A stretch of 48,028 nt of DNA from Klebsiella phage vB_KpnS_Chambers_MM6: the sequence record PP747161.1. One strand, given 5' to 3'. The notes under the pieces were generated by a model. That model was given only the letters and a program-made list of their open reading frames with translations. It was not told the origin of the DNA and searched no databases. The stretch's first letter is position 1. Each line of letters begins with the position of its first letter. The position numbers and the translations under genes are program-made. Below are positions 1 through 43,724 of this stretch, piece by piece.

Positions 1-105
1 ATGGGGGAAGAAAAAAGCGCTACGCAGTGGCTGCGCGTTTTTATTCTCCCCACCATGCCGTATAGGGGTAAACTGAGGCAGAGCCACTTGAAAGAGGAAA
101 CCAAC

Positions 106-603
106 ATGACTGATAAGGTGAAGGTAACGACACCCCGGAACCCAGTCGGCAGACCAACCAGCTACACCGAGGACATGCCGGAAAAACTCCTTGAATATTT
201 CCGTGTCGACGTTGATGACTATATCCAGCACTCACACACGACAGCCGGGAAAAGCAACATTCGCATTAACCCGAAGCACATGCCGTCTATTCTCAACTTC
301 TGCGAAAGCATCGGCATCACGACGACGACTTTTCACGACTGGCGTTCGAAGCATAAGGAATTTTCTGTCGCTTACACGCAGGCGCGCGAGCTTTACGAGC
401 AGATGATTCTGAATATTGGCTTCGCCACGAACAGCACTTTCGCGACCTTCATGCTGAAAGCGAACTTCGGCTATCGCGACAACACTGAGATCGTCGTGAC
501 CGGTGACGCCAACAAGCCGGTGCGGTTGAAGATCGTCAGCGAGCGGCCGAAAGATGAGAAGCCGCGCGAGGAGTCCGAAGCCGTCGACTGGGGTGACGAC
601 TAA
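106..603 (+). CDS. terS: terminase small subunit (DNA-recognition packaging protein)
   Basis: ORF 1..603. N-terminal PRNPVGRPTSYTED region resembles the GRP-type HTH common in phage TerS. RBS AAAGAGGAAA lies 5 nt upstream of ATG 106. Sits at the head of the packaging/head module. The alternative ATG at 1 (200 aa) has no SD. Confidence 0.7.
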   Translation: MTDKVKVTTPRNPVGRPTSYTEDMPEKLLEYFRVDVDDYIQHSHTTAGKSNIRINPKHMPSILNFCESIGITTTTFHDWRSKHKEFSVAYTQARELYEQMILNIGFATNSTFATFMLKANFGYRDNTEIVVTGDANKPVRLKIVSERPKDEKPREESEAVDWGDD

Positions 604-610
604 ATACTGC

Positions 611-639
611 TTGACATATCTATGACTGCGCAGGAATAT
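611..639 (+). promoter_or_regulatory. candidate sigma70 promoter (TTGACA-17-GAATAT) for the terS-terL insert cassette
   Basis: -35 TTGACA at 611-616. 17-nt spacer. -10 GAATAT at 634-639, one mismatch to the TAATAT seen in this phage's other promoters. Confidence 0.35.
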
Positions 640-680
640 GGGGGCCGGGCAATCCTGCCCTCACTGCACAGGACATCAAA

Positions 681-2279
681 ATGACTGAATCACTGAAATT
701 CACCTCCCCGGCACCGGCACCAGTTAGCGGCGTTCTCGCTTGCGCTTCCAGCGAGGCAGGCGCAGAAAACAATCTCAAGCTGGCGCGCGCCATCGTAGTC
801 GAGGTCGCAGACCGTGGCGCTGAGCAGCACGTGAAAATCAAAGTCGGCACCCTGCTTGCCCTGGCGCTGGGCCTTGAGGGCGTCATGAAGGTTATGGCAT
901 CGCTTGAGGCTGATCGCGACAGCAAGATCAAGGCGCTCAGCGAGTGGGAGGTGTTCGGCGTCGAAATGCTTGAGCAGAAGTTCAAGTGCCTGCCGGTGGT
1001 CAACATGAAGCCGGAAGAGAAGCGTAAGCGCATTGCCGCTGGTATCGACACGCTAACGCAGCGACTCGACGAGCGCAGCGAAGACCTGGCTTTAGTAGAT
1101 GGACAGCTGAATGAATGGCGCACGCACACCCGGCACATCCTGGATACCTACTTCGCCACCTACCCCACCAGCAACTCCAACGACCGGAATCTTCGCCTAA
1201 TCATGAAGGCGGCGATCGAAAGCGCGCACAACAAAAACAAGCAGCTGAACAATGACTATAACGCCATGCACAACAGAGCCTACGAATCAGACCAGCTGCG
1301 GAAGGCAGCAGAGCGGGAGCGGGACGACGTGATCAACCTCAACCGCAACGCAGCGGAAGAGATCACCCACTTGCAAGAACGCGCCAAACACCTCGATCAA
1401 ACCATCGTCGACCTGGTGCGCCAGCGCGACAAGAACGGCCAGCAGACTAACCAGCTGGCTAACGAACTGGTCGAGAAACGCAAGGAGATCAGCAGGCTGT
1501 TAGAAATCATTGACCGCCTGCACGCAGAGATCGCAGAGAAGCGCGACATCATCGGCGCAGCAACGCTGCGCTGCACTGCGCTCACCAATGACGCGAAGGC
1601 GATGAGCAAGCAGAACAGCGACCTCGCAGCACGCCTGGCTAACGCTGGTCTGGAGATCGGCAGCTATAAGCAGCTCGTGGAAGACCTGAAAGCAGGCACC
1701 GCCTTTGACCGTGGCACCGTGAAGCGCCAGGCGGACACCATTGATCGCCTGTATGGTCAGCTCAATGAGTGGCACGACTGGGCTACAGACGTCATTTGTA
1801 GCCCGTCATCACTGGGCGGTGAGGCGCAGCGTACAGCCATCACCGCAGCGATGCGCAAGCGCAAGGAGCGCATTGAGTCACTGGAGCAGATCGTGAAGGA
1901 TGTCGTTGCACAGCGTGACGCGTGGGTTATTTGGGCGCGCGGGTACACCAACGCACCGACAGGCATGCACAGCACCGAACAACTTCTCTCGATGGTGAAG
2001 GCGAAAGTGAAGGCGATCACAGAGGGCGTCGACGGGCCAGCGGAGCACACCATGTGCGGCACGATGAAAGTCACCCAACTGAAAGGGGATGTCGTTGCCA
2101 GCAATGGAGGCTGGGCCATGCTCAAACACGGCAACGCGGTGATCGCCGGAAACATTCCCGCCAGCAAGCTGACCCTGGGCGAGGAGATGAAAGAGGCCAT
2201 TCGCGAAGTCGTCCGGGAGGAGATGAGCAGCGCGTTAAAGCAGGCCATCAAGAACGAACTTGATAAGCTGACCATGTAA
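681..2279 (+). CDS. hypothetical 532-aa coiled-coil protein (moron-like insert)
   Basis: Long ORF with heptad-rich, Lys/Glu/Arg/Leu-rich composition, predicted mostly alpha-helical coiled coil. C-terminal Gly-rich segment GDVVASNGGWAMLKHGNAVIAGNIPASKLTLG. AGGA 8 nt upstream of ATG. Unusual position between terS and terL. Confidence 0.6.
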   Translation: MTESLKFTSPAPAPVSGVLACASSEAGAENNLKLARAIVVEVADRGAEQHVKIKVGTLLALALGLEGVMKVMASLEADRDSKIKALSEWEVFGVEMLEQKFKCLPVVNMKPEEKRKRIAAGIDTLTQRLDERSEDLALVDGQLNEWRTHTRHILDTYFATYPTSNSNDRNLRLIMKAAIESAHNKNKQLNNDYNAMHNRAYESDQLRKAAERERDDVINLNRNAAEEITHLQERAKHLDQTIVDLVRQRDKNGQQTNQLANELVEKRKEISRLLEIIDRLHAEIAEKRDIIGAATLRCTALTNDAKAMSKQNSDLAARLANAGLEIGSYKQLVEDLKAGTAFDRGTVKRQADTIDRLYGQLNEWHDWATDVICSPSSLGGEAQRTAITAAMRKRKERIESLEQIVKDVVAQRDAWVIWARGYTNAPTGMHSTEQLLSMVKAKVKAITEGVDGPAEHTMCGTMKVTQLKGDVVASNGGWAMLKHGNAVIAGNIPASKLTLGEEMKEAIREVVREEMSSALKQAIKNELDKLTM

Positions 2280-2331
2280 CCCATCAAATCATTAACCAGC
2301 GGCCCACGACGGGCCGCAATGAGGTGAACCA

Positions 2332-2544
2332 ATGCAGACCTTCTACCCAGTCTTTAGCGCCATTCTGTGCATGTTTTGTTTTCTCTGCTGCAAAGGGTGG
2401 GCGACGGCCCTGGATATCGGAGCCGGGAAAGACAAGCGCATGATCAGGATGGCTCGCACCTTCGACATCGCTGGCGACGTGTTCCGCTGGGCGTGCTGGC
2501 TGTTCATCGTCGCGGGCTTCCTTCGCACCCTCGGATTGTTCTGA
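2332..2544 (+). CDS. small membrane protein (2 predicted TM helices)
   Basis: 70 aa. Hydrophobic stretches VFSAILCMFCFLCC and WACWLFIVAGFL. Strong RBS GAGGTGA 4 nt upstream of ATG 2332. Confidence 0.5.
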   Translation: MQTFYPVFSAILCMFCFLCCKGWATALDIGAGKDKRMIRMARTFDIAGDVFRWACWLFIVAGFLRTLGLF

Positions 2545-2628
2545 TTGCTTACACTTTGTACCATTTGCCCGGTTGATCACCGAAGTGACTGACTGATAGG
2601 CTTTAATGAGACTCGCAGCGAGGTGGAA

Positions 2629-2832
2629 ATGATGGGGATCGTAATGGGTGTGTGGTTGGCGCTGGTGACAGCTATCGCGATGATCGCAATTCACATGGCC
2701 GCAATTGACAGGGAGCTGCTCAAGGCCAACCCGGTCAGCCAGATCACCAAGCTGGTGCTCGCGGTCTTCCTCCTGGTCGGTGTAGCGCACATCGCCACCA
2801 GGTACACAGCTTTCCTCCGCGTGCTATCCTGA
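2629..2832 (+). CDS. small membrane protein (2 predicted TM helices)
   Basis: 67 aa from ATG 2629 (GAGG 5 nt upstream). Hydrophobic segments GIVMGVWLALVTAIAMIAI and LVLAVFLLVGVAHI. Followed by an intrinsic terminator. Confidence 0.5.
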   Translation: MMGIVMGVWLALVTAIAMIAIHMAAIDRELLKANPVSQITKLVLAVFLLVGVAHIATRYTAFLRVLS

Positions 2833-2851
2833 CCTGACAACTGCTATCATG

Positions 2852-2878
2852 GCCCCGTTAACAAAACGGGGCTTTTTT
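2852..2878 (+). terminator. intrinsic terminator
   Basis: Stem GCCCCGTT / AACGGGGC (2852-2859 / 2865-2872), loop AACAA, then TTTTTT. Confidence 0.7.
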
Positions 2879-4240
2879 ATGTCTATCCAATCTGACGCCA
2901 GTCAATTCATTGACCTGACACTCACACCACCGCAGAACGACTTTCTGCAACTGTCGTGCAAACACCCGGCCTTCGTGGCGGGCTTCGGTACAGGCAAGAG
3001 TCAGACCATGGCCGTGTCGTCCGTGCTTGACGCCTCAGAGGGTGGTGCAGATGCAACGATCGCCATCCTTGAGCCAACGTTCGACCTGTGCAAGCTGATC
3101 GCCGTGCCGCGTATCGAACAGATCCTCTCCGAGCTGGGCATTCGCTTTAAGACCGTCGGCAACAAGGAGATCTACACCTCCCACGGCGGGATCGGCGACT
3201 TCCTCTTTCGCTCCATGGACAACCCGGCTCGCCTGGTCGGCTGGGAGGCGTTCCGCATCCACTGCGATGAGATCGACACCCTCAAGAAAGAGGCCGCCAA
3301 AGGGGTATGGCGCGCAGCAATCGCCCGCTGCCGTCAGTCACCGAAGGAGTACGAGCCGTTCGACTTCCTTCCGTCAGACCGCCCGCTGAACAGGGTTAGC
3401 GCCTACTGCACGCCAGAGGGGTTCAACTTCCTGTATGGCCGCTGGGCGAAGGACAAGGAGCGCAGCCGAAAGGCCGGTTATCTCATGATCCAGGCCGCCA
3501 CCTCATCCAACCCATTCCTGCCTGCCGACTACCTGGACGCCCTGCGCGCCAGCTACGACCCGCAGCGCTTCGAGGCCTACGCGAAGGGGCAGTTCGTTAA
3601 CCTGAAATCGGGGACGGTCTATAAGAACTTTAAGCGCGAGCTGAATGACACCGACGTGGAGATCATACCGGGCGAGACGCTGATCGTCGGCCAGGATTTC
3701 AACGTTAACAAGATGGCGACAGTCGTCTACGTCGAGCGCTATGGCGAGGACGGGCTTGCCGAACTGCATGCAGTGGATGAGCGACACAACGGCATCGACA
3801 CACCGGACGTCATCCGCTGGCTGGTCGAGAAGTACCAGAACTCGGGAAATGGCTACATCCACCCGATCGAGGTCTACCCGGATGCGTCAGGCGGCAACAC
3901 CAGCAGCAAGAACGCCAGCATGTCAGACCTGTCGATGCTCATGAGCGCAGGGTTCGACGTCTACTGTGGGCAGGCCAACCCTGCCGTGAAGGACAGGGTG
4001 ATCAGCGCGAACACCCTGTTCTGCAACGCCAGCGGCCGCCGTCGGCTATTCGTGAGCAGCAAGCGCTGCCCGCAATTCGTCGAATGTCTGGAGCAGCAGA
4101 TCTACGATGACAAGGGCAAGCCTGACAAGGAGGCCGGGAAGGATCACATGAACGACGCAGGCACCTACCCGGTGGTCTATAAGTTCCCTGTCGTGCATAA
4201 TGGCACGATCTCAGCAAATAATATTGAATGGGTACGATGA
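2879..4240 (+). CDS. terL: terminase large subunit
   Basis: Walker A FVAGFGTGKSQ near the N-terminus. Size and position are typical of TerL ATPase/nuclease. The alternative in-frame ATG at 2849 would place the upstream terminator hairpin inside the coding region. Confidence 0.88.
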   Translation: MSIQSDASQFIDLTLTPPQNDFLQLSCKHPAFVAGFGTGKSQTMAVSSVLDASEGGADATIAILEPTFDLCKLIAVPRIEQILSELGIRFKTVGNKEIYTSHGGIGDFLFRSMDNPARLVGWEAFRIHCDEIDTLKKEAAKGVWRAAIARCRQSPKEYEPFDFLPSDRPLNRVSAYCTPEGFNFLYGRWAKDKERSRKAGYLMIQAATSSNPFLPADYLDALRASYDPQRFEAYAKGQFVNLKSGTVYKNFKRELNDTDVEIIPGETLIVGQDFNVNKMATVVYVERYGEDGLAELHAVDERHNGIDTPDVIRWLVEKYQNSGNGYIHPIEVYPDASGGNTSSKNASMSDLSMLMSAGFDVYCGQANPAVKDRVISANTLFCNASGRRRLFVSSKRCPQFVECLEQQIYDDKGKPDKEAGKDHMNDAGTYPVVYKFPVVHNGTISANNIEWVR

Positions 4241-5828: not shown

Positions 5829-6943
5829 CATCCGTTAACTCGCGGATGGCGTCGGAGGCGGTAAGGCACCGCCTCTACCTCTACCGCTACAGCGAAGGCC
5901 AGGCGAAGAAGATGACCCAGCTACTGCGCCGAATGTCCGTGGACGTGGTCGGCCGCCTGCTGTACGCGCTGGACGACTCAAAGATCTCCGCCGACAACTA
6001 CACGGTGAAGCGTCTTGAGGCCATCAAAGCAGCCATTAACCCGACGATCAACCGCATCTACAAAACCACCTACGGACAGCTCAAAGCCGACCTTGAGGCG
6101 CTGAGTAACGGCGAGCTGGCGTACCAGTACCGCACGTGGCGAACGCTCATCCCTAACCCGGTGCTTGACTTCGTGGGCGGGCTGGTGGAGATCCCTGAGA
6201 CTCAGGTATGGGCAGCGGCGAACAGTCGCCCGTTCCAGGGCATGCTTCTTCGTGACATCCCGTCAGTGCTGGGCGATGCCATGACCGACTCGATCGGTCG
6301 GGCGGTGCAGCAGGGCATTCTACAGGGCGAGACGTATGACCAGATCATTCGCCGGGTCAAAGGCAGTGCGGCAGCGGCCTACAAAGACGGGGTGATCGGC
6401 ACCAACGAGCGCCACCTTGCCACCGTCACCCGCAGCGCAGTGTCGCACGTCGCAGCTGAGGCGCGGGACAAGATCGGCGAGGCGAACGCACCGCTCATCA
6501 AGTCAGAACAGTGGCTGTCTACGCTGGACAATAAGACGTCGAAGCTGTGCATCATCCGCGATCAGCTGCTGTACATGCGGGACAAGAAGCACACACCGAT
6601 CGGCCATAGCGTGCCCTACGGTGCTGGCCCTGGGCGGCTGCACATGAACTGCCGTAGTACGTCGACCTTCGTGTTCAAGAGCTGGGAGGAATTGGGCGTT
6701 CCGGGAGTCAAGATCAAGGGAGCGTCGCGCGCCAGCATGAACGGACAGGTGCCGATTTACATGGACTATTCGAGCTGGGTGGAGCGCCAGCCTATGAGCA
6801 CGTTAACGCAGGTGTTTGGCGTGGAGCGTGCGCAGCTCATCCGCGACGGCAAGATCTCACCGCCTGACCTGTTCAACGACAAGGGGGAGTATTTAACACT
6901 CTCCCAGCTTCGCGACCTTGACCACATCCCGGCAGAAGACTAA
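5825..6943 (+). CDS. head morphogenesis protein (Mu F / SPP1 gp7-like minor head protein)
   Basis: ATGA overlap with the portal stop. Strong RBS AAGGAGG. C-terminal GRLHMNCRSTS resembles the PPLHPNCRC motif of the Phage_Mu_F domain. Position immediately after the portal. Confidence 0.75.
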   Translation: MTSVNSRMASEAVRHRLYLYRYSEGQAKKMTQLLRRMSVDVVGRLLYALDDSKISADNYTVKRLEAIKAAINPTINRIYKTTYGQLKADLEALSNGELAYQYRTWRTLIPNPVLDFVGGLVEIPETQVWAAANSRPFQGMLLRDIPSVLGDAMTDSIGRAVQQGILQGETYDQIIRRVKGSAAAAYKDGVIGTNERHLATVTRSAVSHVAAEARDKIGEANAPLIKSEQWLSTLDNKTSKLCIIRDQLLYMRDKKHTPIGHSVPYGAGPGRLHMNCRSTSTFVFKSWEELGVPGVKIKGASRASMNGQVPIYMDYSSWVERQPMSTLTQVFGVERAQLIRDGKISPPDLFNDKGEYLTLSQLRDLDHIPAED

Positions 6944-7677: not shown

Positions 7678-7686
7678 GTAAGTACA

Positions 7687-7709
7687 GGCCCGGCATTGCC
7701 GGGCTTTTT
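7687..7709 (+). terminator. intrinsic terminator after scaffold gene
   Basis: GGCCCGGC-att-GCCGGGC followed by TTTTT. Confidence 0.7.
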
Positions 7710-7772
7710 CTTGCTTGTCCAGTAGTTGCCGGTTATCATCCAGACGTTTAATCACTCAAAGGACATCGCGCG

Positions 7773-8898: not shown

Positions 8899-8921
8899 GG
8901 GGGCCGATTGGCCCCCTTTTC
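8899..8921 (+). terminator. intrinsic terminator after major capsid gene
   Basis: GGGGGCC-gatt-GGCCCCC followed by TTTT. Confidence 0.75.
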
Positions 8922-8934
8922 ATTGGAGCAAAAT

Positions 8935-11588: not shown

Positions 11589-11612
11589 CAGGGCGGCTTA
11601 GGCCGCCTTTTT
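11589..11612 (+). terminator. intrinsic terminator after major tail protein gene
   Basis: GGCGGC-tta-GGCCGCC followed by TTTTT. Confidence 0.7.
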
Positions 11613-11631
11613 CATATCTGGAGACAAGACA

Positions 11632-15175: not shown

Positions 15176-15184
15176 TAACCTACA

Positions 15185-15209
15185 GCCTCCCACACAGGAG
15201 GCTTTTTTT
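15185..15209 (+). terminator. intrinsic terminator after tape measure gene
   Basis: GCCTCC-cacaca-GGAGGC followed by TTTTTTT. Confidence 0.7.
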
Positions 15210-15572
15210 ATGGCTACATTAGACGCGTGGATCTGGCCGCTGGCGGCAGGTCAACAGGTATCAGTGAAAGACCGCAGCCGATCGAACAGCTTCGGCGACG
15301 GCTCACAGCAGAACGTTTTAGAAGGCATCAATCCGTTCATTATGGAGGTGCCCTGCTCGTGGACTGGCAACGCCAAGACAGGCAACCAGATCCTATCCTT
15401 CCTGAAAGCGCACATCACCAACCCGTTCCAGATGGTTCCGCCGCATGGCGAACTGGGCCTTTACACCGTGAAATCAGGCACGATCAAATATGTCGCGCTG
15501 GGACGTGCAACCATGAACATTACCTTCACAGCCGAGCAGGCCGTGGGCATCTACACAGGGGTGAAAGGATGA
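15210..15572 (+). CDS. minor tail protein (lambda gpM-like)
   Basis: 120 aa from ATG 15210. Size and position match gpM immediately after the tape measure. The longer ORF-track start at 15018 runs through the upstream terminator. Confidence 0.65.
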   Translation: MATLDAWIWPLAAGQQVSVKDRSRSNSFGDGSQQNVLEGINPFIMEVPCSWTGNAKTGNQILSFLKAHITNPFQMVPPHGELGLYTVKSGTIKYVALGRATMNITFTAEQAVGIYTGVKG

Positions 15573-32651: not shown

Positions 32652-32681
32652 ATATTACTTCCGCATAATAGGCCATGTCAA
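32652..32681 (-). promoter_or_regulatory. near-consensus leftward promoter (TTGACA-18-TAATAT)
   Basis: On the minus strand, -35 at 32681..32676 and -10 at 32657..32652. Between the VRR-NUC gene and the 32625 gene. Confidence 0.55.
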
Positions 32682-36285: not shown

Positions 36286-36314
36286 TTGACAGGTATATGG
36301 TGCCCAAGTAATAT
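36286..36314 (+). promoter_or_regulatory. near-consensus sigma70 promoter (TTGACA-17-TAATAT)
   Basis: -35 at 36286-36291, -10 at 36309-36314. Sits upstream of the 36345 gene within the rightward early block. Confidence 0.6.
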
Positions 36315-43694: not shown

Positions 43695-43724
43695 ATATTA
43701 GTACGGAATAATAACCAGTGTCAA
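43695..43724 (-). promoter_or_regulatory. near-consensus leftward promoter (TTGACA-18-TAATAT) followed by a 7-bp hairpin
   Basis: -35 at 43724..43719, -10 at 43700..43695. Hairpin CCCGGCA-ccc-TGCCGGG at 43672-43688 lies in the leader before the membrane-protein gene. Confidence 0.55.

Follow-up and report, generated by a model that had tools for sequence, protein, structure and literature searches.

A dispensable three-gene cassette between the terminase genes of a lineage of ~48-kb Klebsiella siphophages

Several described systems resemble in part the locus considered here, a three-gene cassette between terS and terL in the 48,028-nt sequence record of Klebsiella phage vB_KpnS_Chambers_MM6 (PP747161.1; hereafter the window, whose coordinates are used throughout). 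HK97 gp15 is a small inner-membrane superinfection-exclusion protein. Imm and Sp of the virulent phage T4 are small, early-expressed and dispensable superinfection-exclusion membrane proteins, and they have no coiled-coil partner. T4 fibritin (wac) is a trimeric, late virion protein with a C-terminal foldon. The phi29 proteins p16.7 and p1 are early and dispensable, and in the psp operon a coiled-coil gene is followed by the genes of two small membrane proteins. The precedent closest in position is Tab/anti-Tab of Pseudomonas phage JBD26, a phage-versus-phage module that lies between terS and terL and has its own promoter (PMC10884400). Tab is an 83-residue soluble protein, encoded on the opposite strand of a temperate phage and expressed by the prophage, and it blocks tail assembly via the tape measure protein (PMC10884400).

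The cassette of the window comprises a gene for a 532-residue coiled-coil protein (CC), followed by genes for two small proteins with two transmembrane (TM) helices each (TM1 and TM2). By sequence and profile comparison, the three proteins belong to no known family. The locus is familiar as a kind, being an accessory transcription unit in a late operon, and the unit is real, cleanly delimited and without a known family. We lean, tentatively and at slightly short of even probability, towards a lineage-specific and dispensable accessory operon that acts as a conflict module and is not packaging or virion machinery. Superinfection exclusion is the leading candidate for its role, with counter-defence as the alternative. 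A conflict module is ranked first because CC evolves fast and mosaically, the genes are lost recurrently, the membrane partner has been replaced by a non-homologue, CC alleles vary independently of the host strain, and Tab/anti-Tab provides a precedent.

Divergence, loss and replacement of the cassette genes

An earlier note on this DNA described a three-gene cassette between terS and terL. Its three open reading frames (ORFs) are confirmed within a gap of 2275 bp:

681..2279, + strand: CC gene, encoding a 532-amino-acid (aa), predicted cytoplasmic coiled-coil protein of an orphan family (ORF, substitution rates, homologue searches)
2332..2544, + strand: TM1 gene, 70-aa protein with two TM segments (hydropathy, alignment, substitution rates)
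2629..2832, + strand: TM2 gene, 67-aa protein with two TM segments, with an alternative GTG start at 2623 giving 69 aa (hydropathy, alignment, substitution rates)

All three are coding, as judged by a ratio of nonsynonymous to synonymous substitution (dN/dS; Nei-Gojobori, against up to ten relatives) below 1. The ratio is 0.22-0.53 for CC, 0.09-0.41 for TM1 and 0.02-0.045 for the flanking terL. For TM2, informative comparisons give 0.035-0.22, and a single near-identical relative, which shows hardly any substitutions, gives 0.69. CC, TM1 and TM2 are real genes under purifying but relaxed selection.

The first 4.3 kb of the window is 96-98% identical to the ~48-kb virulent Klebsiella siphophages Mingus_MM1, phiKp_14, K34PH164, MUC-5 and vB_Kp3. 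The cassette occupies the same position in three clades of this group:

Clade A: vB_Kp3-like phages, including the window
Clade B: HSE3/EKq1/VLCpiS8c-like phages
Clade C: ATCEA85-like phages and two metagenomic contigs, with a CC of 497-612 aa and, after it, only one protein, which has 142-144 aa and four hydrophobic segments

Neither BLASTP nor HHalign relates this protein of clade C to TM1 or TM2, and its reading as a TM1-TM2 fusion was rejected for that reason. The lack of similarity indicates that the membrane partner was replaced non-orthologously, with the theme of a coiled coil plus four TM helices being kept. Even where it is not homologous, the membrane partner 3' of CC is small and polytopic in every clade, and its TM helices add up to four.

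Outside the lineage the picture changes. Serratia phage Susuwatari, whose terL is 64% identical, has only two tiny ORFs of 29 and 50 codons between terS and terL. In Jersey-like (terL 50% identical) and Kagunavirus (39%) phages, terS and terL overlap and there is no cassette. The expectation that terS abuts terL in relatives is thus true of the next-nearest phages, and within the lineage the cassette is universal. Its GC content (0.55-0.61) equals that of the flanks (0.52-0.63). Presence in all three clades, absence from the next-nearest phages and native GC content indicate that the cassette is ancestral to the phage group and not a recent insertion. Relatives are reported to be virulent (PMC13435897; PMC10793312), and no integrase is annotated in the relative K34PH164. 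Since the phages are virulent, the cassette is not a prophage-expressed moron, and the earlier idea of an inserted moron, in the sense of a recent acquisition, does not hold.

The cassette genes diverge at very different rates from the flanking genes. Identity to the window is 96-99.6% for terL (clades A and B), 75-99.5% for terS, 80-100% for TM2, 49-99% for TM1 and 35-96% for CC. Against EKq1, dN is 0.43 for CC and 0.023 for terL, which makes CC about 20 times faster than terL. The CC alignment also contains mosaic indels and swapped C-terminal alleles.

The cassette is also lost in nature. Holland_MM2 lacks window positions 738-2553 through a clean 1.8-kb deletion, in contig L017 (P0083) residues 1-36 of CC are fused in frame to residues 43-70 of TM1, and HSE3 has lost most of CC together with the first codons of TM1. 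In addition, MUC-5 has an in-frame stop in CC, the CC gene of Haden_MM8 is split into three ORFs, and metagenome assemblies hold further short ORFs that match the CC N-terminus only. Every examined genome with a lost or broken CC retains an intact promoter, TM2 and terminator. Three natural deletions that arose independently, together with two or more point disruptions, mark the cassette as dispensable.

The distribution of CC alleles bears on what the protein might recognize. Among phages isolated on ATCC BAA-2342, CC identity to the window ranges from 96% to 79%, and in addition one phage has a broken copy and one has lost the gene by deletion; on ATCC 700603 the identity ranges from 93% to 34%. 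A role in host recognition is disfavoured because phages from one host strain carry very different CC alleles.

Transcription signals and flanking genes

The signals that delimit and subdivide the cassette are as follows:

611..639, + strand: predicted sigma-70-type promoter, with -35 TTGACA at 611-616, a 17-nucleotide (nt) spacer, -10 GAATAT at 634-639 and AAATA upstream (clade conservation)
639..663, + strand: conserved hairpin that starts at the last base of the -10 (fold z = -2.2 in the window, -3.6 in EKq1)
2299..2317, + strand: GC hairpin between CC and TM1, with no T-run in the window (fold z = -3.6)
2851..2878, + strand: intrinsic terminator with a 9-bp stem (6 GC pairs), a 5-nt loop and T6, adjoining the terL ATG (fold z = -3.85)

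The TTGACA at 611, pointed out in the earlier note, is present and belongs to a predicted promoter of the sigma-70 type, whose hexamers are conserved across three clades. TTGACA and (G)AATA(T/A)T are kept 16-18 nt apart in every relative examined (clades A, B and C), while the spacer sequence diverges. The window form is AAATACTGC-TTGACA-N17-GAATATG, and the form in the ATCEA85 clade is TTGACA-16-AATAAT. A generic promoter scan leaves out the site at 611 because its -10, GAATAT, scores only 3/6. The pattern AAATA-N3/4-TTGACA-N17-nAATATG is shared with the promoters at 36286(+) and 32681(-), which read AAATA-N3/4-TTGACA-N17-TAATATG. These two and three more near-consensus promoters with a perfect TTGACA lie ahead of replication, recombination and small early genes:

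32652-32681, - strand: near-consensus promoter
36286-36314, + strand: near-consensus promoter
43695-43724, - strand: near-consensus promoter
45680-45708, - strand: near-consensus promoter
47630-47658, - strand: near-consensus promoter

Within the structural-gene region (0-29 kb), the + strand holds no further promoter of the cassette class. There, the generic scan returned a single weaker promoter-like site, at 6918, between 1 and 8 kb and none between 8 and 28 kb. Host sigma-70 RNA polymerase would transcribe the cassette, with early timing, from an early-class promoter embedded in a promoter-poor late region, and the terminator would keep terL and the late genes largely free of that transcription. 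For the hairpin at 639-663 there is a counterpart in clade B (L009 567-590) with an 8-bp GC stem and T5, which resembles a terminator for terS transcripts. Transcripts begun at the cassette promoter would be without the 5' arm of the 639-663 hairpin.

The strong terminator that had been proposed directly ahead of terL is confirmed. It is among the three best + strand sites of the window (the hairpin part is 2851-2873) and is conserved in three clades, and three pairs of its stem show compensatory double changes between clades. Similar signals are found further along the late operon, where strong hairpin and T-run sites follow the scaffold, major head, major tail and tape-measure genes:

7686-7716, + strand: hairpin and T-run
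8899-8926, + strand: hairpin and T-run
11590-11619, + strand: hairpin and T-run
15184-15212, + strand: hairpin and T-run, likewise adjoining an ATG

Because such sites punctuate the late operon, late transcription must pass them, which implies read-through or antitermination. The proposal of an autonomous unit consequently stands in respect of the conserved promoter and terminator; the terminator taken alone says little, as similar sites recur across the late operon. The hairpin between CC and TM1 differs in stem sequence by clade with its pairing kept (GCGGCCC/GGGCCGC, GGCCCC/GGGGCC and GCCCCGG/CCGGGGC), and it is a full terminator (T5) in ATCEA85 and L012. This conservation suggests that CC is made in greater amounts than the membrane proteins, with the hairpin 3' of CC skewing expression towards CC.

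These signals also bear on the possibility that there is no functional unit, and that the slot collects accessory genes with no common purpose. In that case TM2 would act independently of CC and TM1, and the shared promoter and terminator would be incidental to the architecture of the late operon. Such independence would fit the natural deletions, all three of which take CC and part or all of TM1 and never TM2, as well as the far stronger conservation of TM2 in the informative dN/dS comparisons (0.035-0.22), the true terminator between CC and the membrane gene in ATCEA85, and the frequency of hairpin and T-run sites in the late operon. It does not fit the small polytopic membrane protein that is found 3' of CC in every clade despite non-orthologous replacement, nor the single conserved promoter ahead of the set, and we regard it as unlikely.

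The genes on either side of the cassette are those of the terminase:

1..603, + strand: terS, small terminase, upstream neighbour (PF16677 GP3_package, E=8.5e-12; phrog_3064, E=9e-49)
2879..4240, + strand: terL, 453 aa, downstream neighbour (PF03237 and PF17289, Terminase_6N/6C)

In the annotated relative K34PH164, the + strand carries terS, three hypothetical genes, terL, portal, and head and tail genes. Recombination, replication and small early genes lie beyond the structural genes, and a canonical lysis cassette is ~40 kb away. The annotated terS of the window has a 35-codon N-terminal extension (1-105) that contains a palindrome at ~18-40 with T-runs on both strands. Clade B records have a shorter terS that starts at the equivalent of ATG 106, a codon with a good Shine-Dalgarno sequence ahead of it, and terS of the window may likewise begin at ATG 106. 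For terL, many records place the start at 2849. A T7 run in clade B throws that upstream ATG out of frame, so that the start is 2879, the pre-terL hairpin is non-coding and the terS-terL gap is the 2275 bp given above. The only purine-rich Shine-Dalgarno candidate for terL (GGGG) sits in the 3' arm of the terminator (2866-2881), with T6 against the ATG, an arrangement in which the terminator structure may keep terL translation down. Just 5' of the same hairpin, at 2839-2849, the 11-mer CTGCTATCATG is invariant in all three clades amid diverging intergenic sequence; it may serve terL expression as a site of processing or of protein binding. Relatives' TM2 proteins align only from the third or fourth codon of the window form, which begins with an M-E-M-M start cluster. 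The real TM2 start is most likely ATG 2629 or 2632, behind AGGTGG, on account of this alignment.

At the far end of the window, an AT-rich, non-coding stretch of ~400 bp (47632-48028) lies between a divergent primase/helicase gene and terS. It contains TATAAT at 47996-48001 without a recognisable -35, and is a candidate activator-dependent late promoter, packaging region or origin region.

The coiled-coil protein and its membrane partners

CC can be divided into conserved ends, a helical body with breaks and one hypervariable segment:

681..854, + strand: conserved N-terminal region, aa 1-58, with invariant F7, T8, A13, P14, L19, C21 and QxVKIKxG (alignment; low confidence in the structure model)
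933-1065, + strand: helix-break module (L-x-E/A-W, ~10 residues, P, ~8 residues, helix)
1101-1235, + strand: second copy of the helix-break module
1290..1775, + strand: coiled coil in one continuous heptad register, aa ~204-365, ~22 nm long, a = I/V/N/R, d = L (register analysis)
1755-1886, + strand: third copy of the helix-break module
1905-2040, + strand: fourth copy of the helix-break module
2025..2180, + strand: hypervariable non-helical segment, aa 449-500 (alignment columns 620-690; model confidence score pLDDT <40)
2181..2276, + strand: conserved C-terminal helix, aa 501-532 (alignment and structure model)

The AlphaFold2 monomer model of CC, made from a 31-sequence alignment, is poor (pLDDT 55.7, overall fold score pTM 0.22), though clear in its secondary structure. 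At this low confidence it places helices at 28-448, a non-helical segment at 449-500 and a terminal helix at 501-531. Invariant positions are concentrated in aa 1-58 and 361-420. The N-terminal region is still recognisable in the distant homologues P0077 and P0080, and the small homologues P0081 and P0082 end in the CC C-terminal segment. The breaks lie at about residues 85, 142, 360 and 411, and the top pairwise z-scores of the modules against shuffles are 6.9 and 4.7. One copy is at a different alignment place in clade B, which suggests module shuffling, and the coiled coil carries clade-specific indels of 20-60 residues. CC had been described as almost entirely coiled coil. This is accurate in that the protein is helical over most of its length, and inaccurate in that the coil is not continuous but interrupted by the four Trp/Pro-containing breaks. 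The supposed Gly-rich C-terminal tip (aa 469-500) is not the tip, as the conserved 32-residue helix comes after it. The segment at aa 449-500 occurs as at least four unrelated-looking allele types, which are shuffled mosaically against the remainder of CC. It is non-helical in the monomer model and has no structural match, and it may or may not hold a folded trimerisation or binding domain.

Hydropathy shows neither a signal peptide nor a TM segment in CC (maximum KD19 1.66), and neither a Walker A motif nor a DNA-binding domain or ATPase motif was detected in it. A lipoprotein reading of the N-terminus (VLAC) was rejected, as charged residues stand ahead of the Cys in clade B. The heptads across the CC family have I (24%), V (15%), N (13%) or R (14%) at position a and L (45%) at position d. 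According to the a/d rules of Harbury, I/V/N at a with L at d is the signature of a parallel two-stranded coiled coil and not of a trimer. CC is accordingly likely to be a dimer, probably a parallel one.

The architecture of CC recalls a virion fibre or whisker like T4 fibritin, which would have the N-terminus as its anchor in the head or neck and the variable C-terminal segment for contact with an external ligand, the membrane proteins being unrelated passengers. A conserved N-terminus, a coiled coil of variable length and a variable, mosaic C-terminus are all reminiscent of fibre proteins, the gene lies within the head and packaging block, CC is as dispensable as T4 wac, and the CC profile has sub-threshold matches to reovirus sigma-1 (E=0.038) and to a short tail fibre (E=0.34). 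Phage fibres are trimeric, however, and the CC heptads (a = I/V/N, d = L) are of the dimer type. The variable segment is only ~50 residues long and is followed by a conserved helix. Furthermore, the promoter is early-class, CC is always in predicted co-transcription with membrane proteins, its alleles vary widely among phages of the same host strain, and no appendages are visible by electron microscopy in the relative PMBT64 (PMC13435897). A fibre is therefore very unlikely in our judgment. The earlier note had offered either superinfection exclusion, abortive infection or anti-defence, or a capsid fibre; a non-structural accessory role fits best, and the fibre half of that proposal is disfavoured by the dimer-like heptads, the promoter class, the alleles that do not track the host and the PMBT64 images.

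TM1 and TM2 each have two hydrophobic segments by hydropathy, at about 5-27 and 50-70 in TM1 and about 2-26 and 36-57 in TM2, in agreement with their description as two-helix membrane proteins. TM2 is the best conserved of the three proteins and is kept in the deletion variants Holland_MM2, HSE3 and L017. At the end of its first TM helix, TM1 has an invariant cysteine cluster, LCxxCFxCCKGW (aa 12-23; window 2368-2400). The cluster is unusual for a 70-aa membrane protein and could serve metal binding or disulphides. A lipoprotein reading of these cysteines was rejected, as position -1 of each Cys is not G/A/S.

A pair of such proteins might instead set the timing of lysis, TM1 and TM2 being an extra holin/antiholin or RI-like pair and CC a cytoplasmic regulator like T4 RIII. 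Proteins of ~70 aa with two TM helices match class II holins and pinholins, window TM2 has the M-E-M-M start cluster, and the genes are dispensable. The window already has a canonical lysis cassette at 39.8-41.2 kb, with PHROG matches to a holin/antiholin (phrog_126), an Rz-like spanin (phrog_312) and an endolysin (phrog_7). The C-termini (TM1 ...FLRTLGLF, TM2 ...AFLRVLS) lack a charged hydrophilic tail, the extra Met codons of TM2 are absent from clade B, leaving no conserved dual-start motif, no holin match was obtained in PHROG or Pfam, and the promoter is early-class. The class II holin or pinholin reading was rejected because, although two TM helices fit, there is no linkage to lysis genes, no charged tail and no dual start; among the alternatives weighed, lysis timing is the least probable.

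Homology searches place the three proteins outside known families, as had been anticipated, and return nothing beyond coiled-coil noise. Pfam, PHROGs, NCBIfam and PADLOC gave nothing above sub-threshold coiled-coil matches for CC, TM1 or TM2, and neither the CC family profile nor the C-terminal 192 aa had a significant match among PDB sequences. Foldseek of the CC model against BFVD returned the vB_Kp3 orthologue alone. A word-indexed search found 64 clusters of CC homologues, most of them on ~48-kb contigs, and only 15 CC matches came from 1.84 billion representatives searched exhaustively with a profile by HMMER. All of the traced ones come from this Klebsiella phage group; the weakest match, P0085 (E=7e-4), is a repeat-rich protein of untraced origin. 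Word-indexed searches found no homologues of TM1 and TM2 outside this phage lineage, and a scan of IMG/VR found one locus only. The best PADLOC scores of CC are 21 bits for PbeC and 17.8 bits for LmuB, both in coiled-coil regions only, and TM1 and TM2 have none. The SMC model TIGR02168 matches CC at 34.7 bits against a cut-off of 567, in the coiled-coil arm only. No MCPsignal domain was found in CC by Pfam at E <= 1, and CC, having no TM segment, has no TM/HAMP architecture. GenBank names given to CC in relatives, "methyl-accepting chemotaxis protein I" and "chromosome partition protein" (L001 681-2279; L004 2092-3951), are coiled-coil artefacts without domain support, and "DUF1799 domain-containing protein" for a small ORF in the cassette region is not supported by any domain match.

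The weak SMC and Rad50 matches invite comparison with a membrane-anchored organiser of replication or packaging like phi29 p16.7 and p1, a non-essential, tethered scaffold that would concentrate phage DNA or terminase. The position between terS and terL, the early-class promoter, the pairing of a coiled coil with a membrane partner in all clades, and dispensability would all suit such a role, as would the sub-threshold matches to SMC and Rad50 arms. CC nevertheless has no DNA-binding or ATPase motif and no Walker A, and the SMC-type score is far under the family cut-off (34.7 bits vs 567). A housekeeping role is at odds with CC falling to 35% identity while terL stays at 96%, and the membrane partner has been swapped for a non-homologue. 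We consider an organiser distinctly unlikely.

Proposed role and described systems

In the favoured reading of a conflict operon, the products would be a cytoplasmic, probably parallel-dimeric coiled coil and a four-helix inner-membrane module, made of two 2-TM proteins in the window and of one unrelated 4-TM protein in the ATCEA85 clade. CC would work with or at the membrane module early in infection. The analysis shows that the genes are real and dispensable, that their signals are conserved, that the family is an orphan, that CC evolves fast and mosaically and that a membrane partner is always present; early expression, dimerisation of CC, its physical coupling to the membrane proteins and a role in conflict are what we infer. 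The most likely role would be to exclude superinfecting or competing phages; alternatively, the module would neutralise a membrane-linked host defence. A more specific proposal is possible, if doubtful: an undescribed two-part system of a virulent phage, in which a dimeric CC would be coupled to a four-helix inner-membrane module and deployed early, and which would block the DNA entry of competitors or disarm membrane-based host defence, with the fast-evolving CC as the specificity determinant.

Several points weigh against a conflict role. Neither in sequence nor in structure do the cassette proteins match a protein of exclusion, defence or anti-defence, and to our knowledge no 500-aa coiled coil is among the known superinfection-exclusion proteins. 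TM2 may act independently, because it is far more conserved than CC and never deleted. The -10 of the cassette promoter is weak (3/6), and since terminator-like hairpins are common in the late operon, the 2851 site need not bound a separate unit. The losses may stem from laboratory passage or, for the two point disruptions, from sequencing errors. Positive selection is not demonstrated, as the gene-wide dN/dS is below 1. The literature on relatives does not mention the cassette genes, and no proteomic, transcriptomic, localisation or functional data were found there.

If the conflict role is true, the cassette is a second, unrelated module at the terS-terL junction, which would suggest that the junction is a more general hotspot of conflict genes. 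Such phages are being collected for the therapy of K. pneumoniae infections, and genes for exclusion or defence sensitivity would affect cocktail design. If it is merely an orphan accessory operon of unassigned role, it is one of many in phage genomes. A natural near-isogenic pair from the same host strain, Mingus_MM1 with an intact cassette and Holland_MM2 with a deleted one, makes function directly testable.

The cassette shares features with each of the described systems and is identical to none. Like Tab/anti-Tab, which itself acts in phage-versus-phage conflict, it lies between terS and terL, has its own promoter and encodes no known domains. It differs in that the phage is virulent, the genes are co-oriented, the products are a 532-aa coiled coil and membrane proteins, and the sequences are not similar. 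The classical morons of lambdoid phages, such as HK97 gp15, are likewise units of promoter, gene and terminator between genes that are adjacent in relatives, but the cassette is compositionally native, ancestral to its lineage, carried by virulent phages and composed of three genes including a large coiled coil. With T4 Imm and Sp it has in common small dispensable membrane proteins of a virulent phage and, probably, early timing; the proteins are not homologous, and exclusion by the cassette is a proposal. CC resembles T4 fibritin in its length of about 500 aa, segmented coiled coil, conserved N-terminus and dispensability, and departs from it in its dimer-like heptads, early-class promoter and predicted co-transcription with membrane proteins. 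In phi29 p16.7/p1 and PspA-PspB-PspC, a coiled-coil protein is also tied to small membrane proteins, and the psp gene order is that of the cassette. There is, however, no match to PspA_IM30 or any other family at E <= 1, and CC has neither a TM segment of its own nor a detected DNA-binding domain. Long heptad-repeat helices are shared with SMC, Rad50, LmuB and JetC and with methyl-accepting chemotaxis proteins, from which CC is set apart by the absence of ATPase heads, Walker A and MCPsignal and by scores far under the cut-offs.

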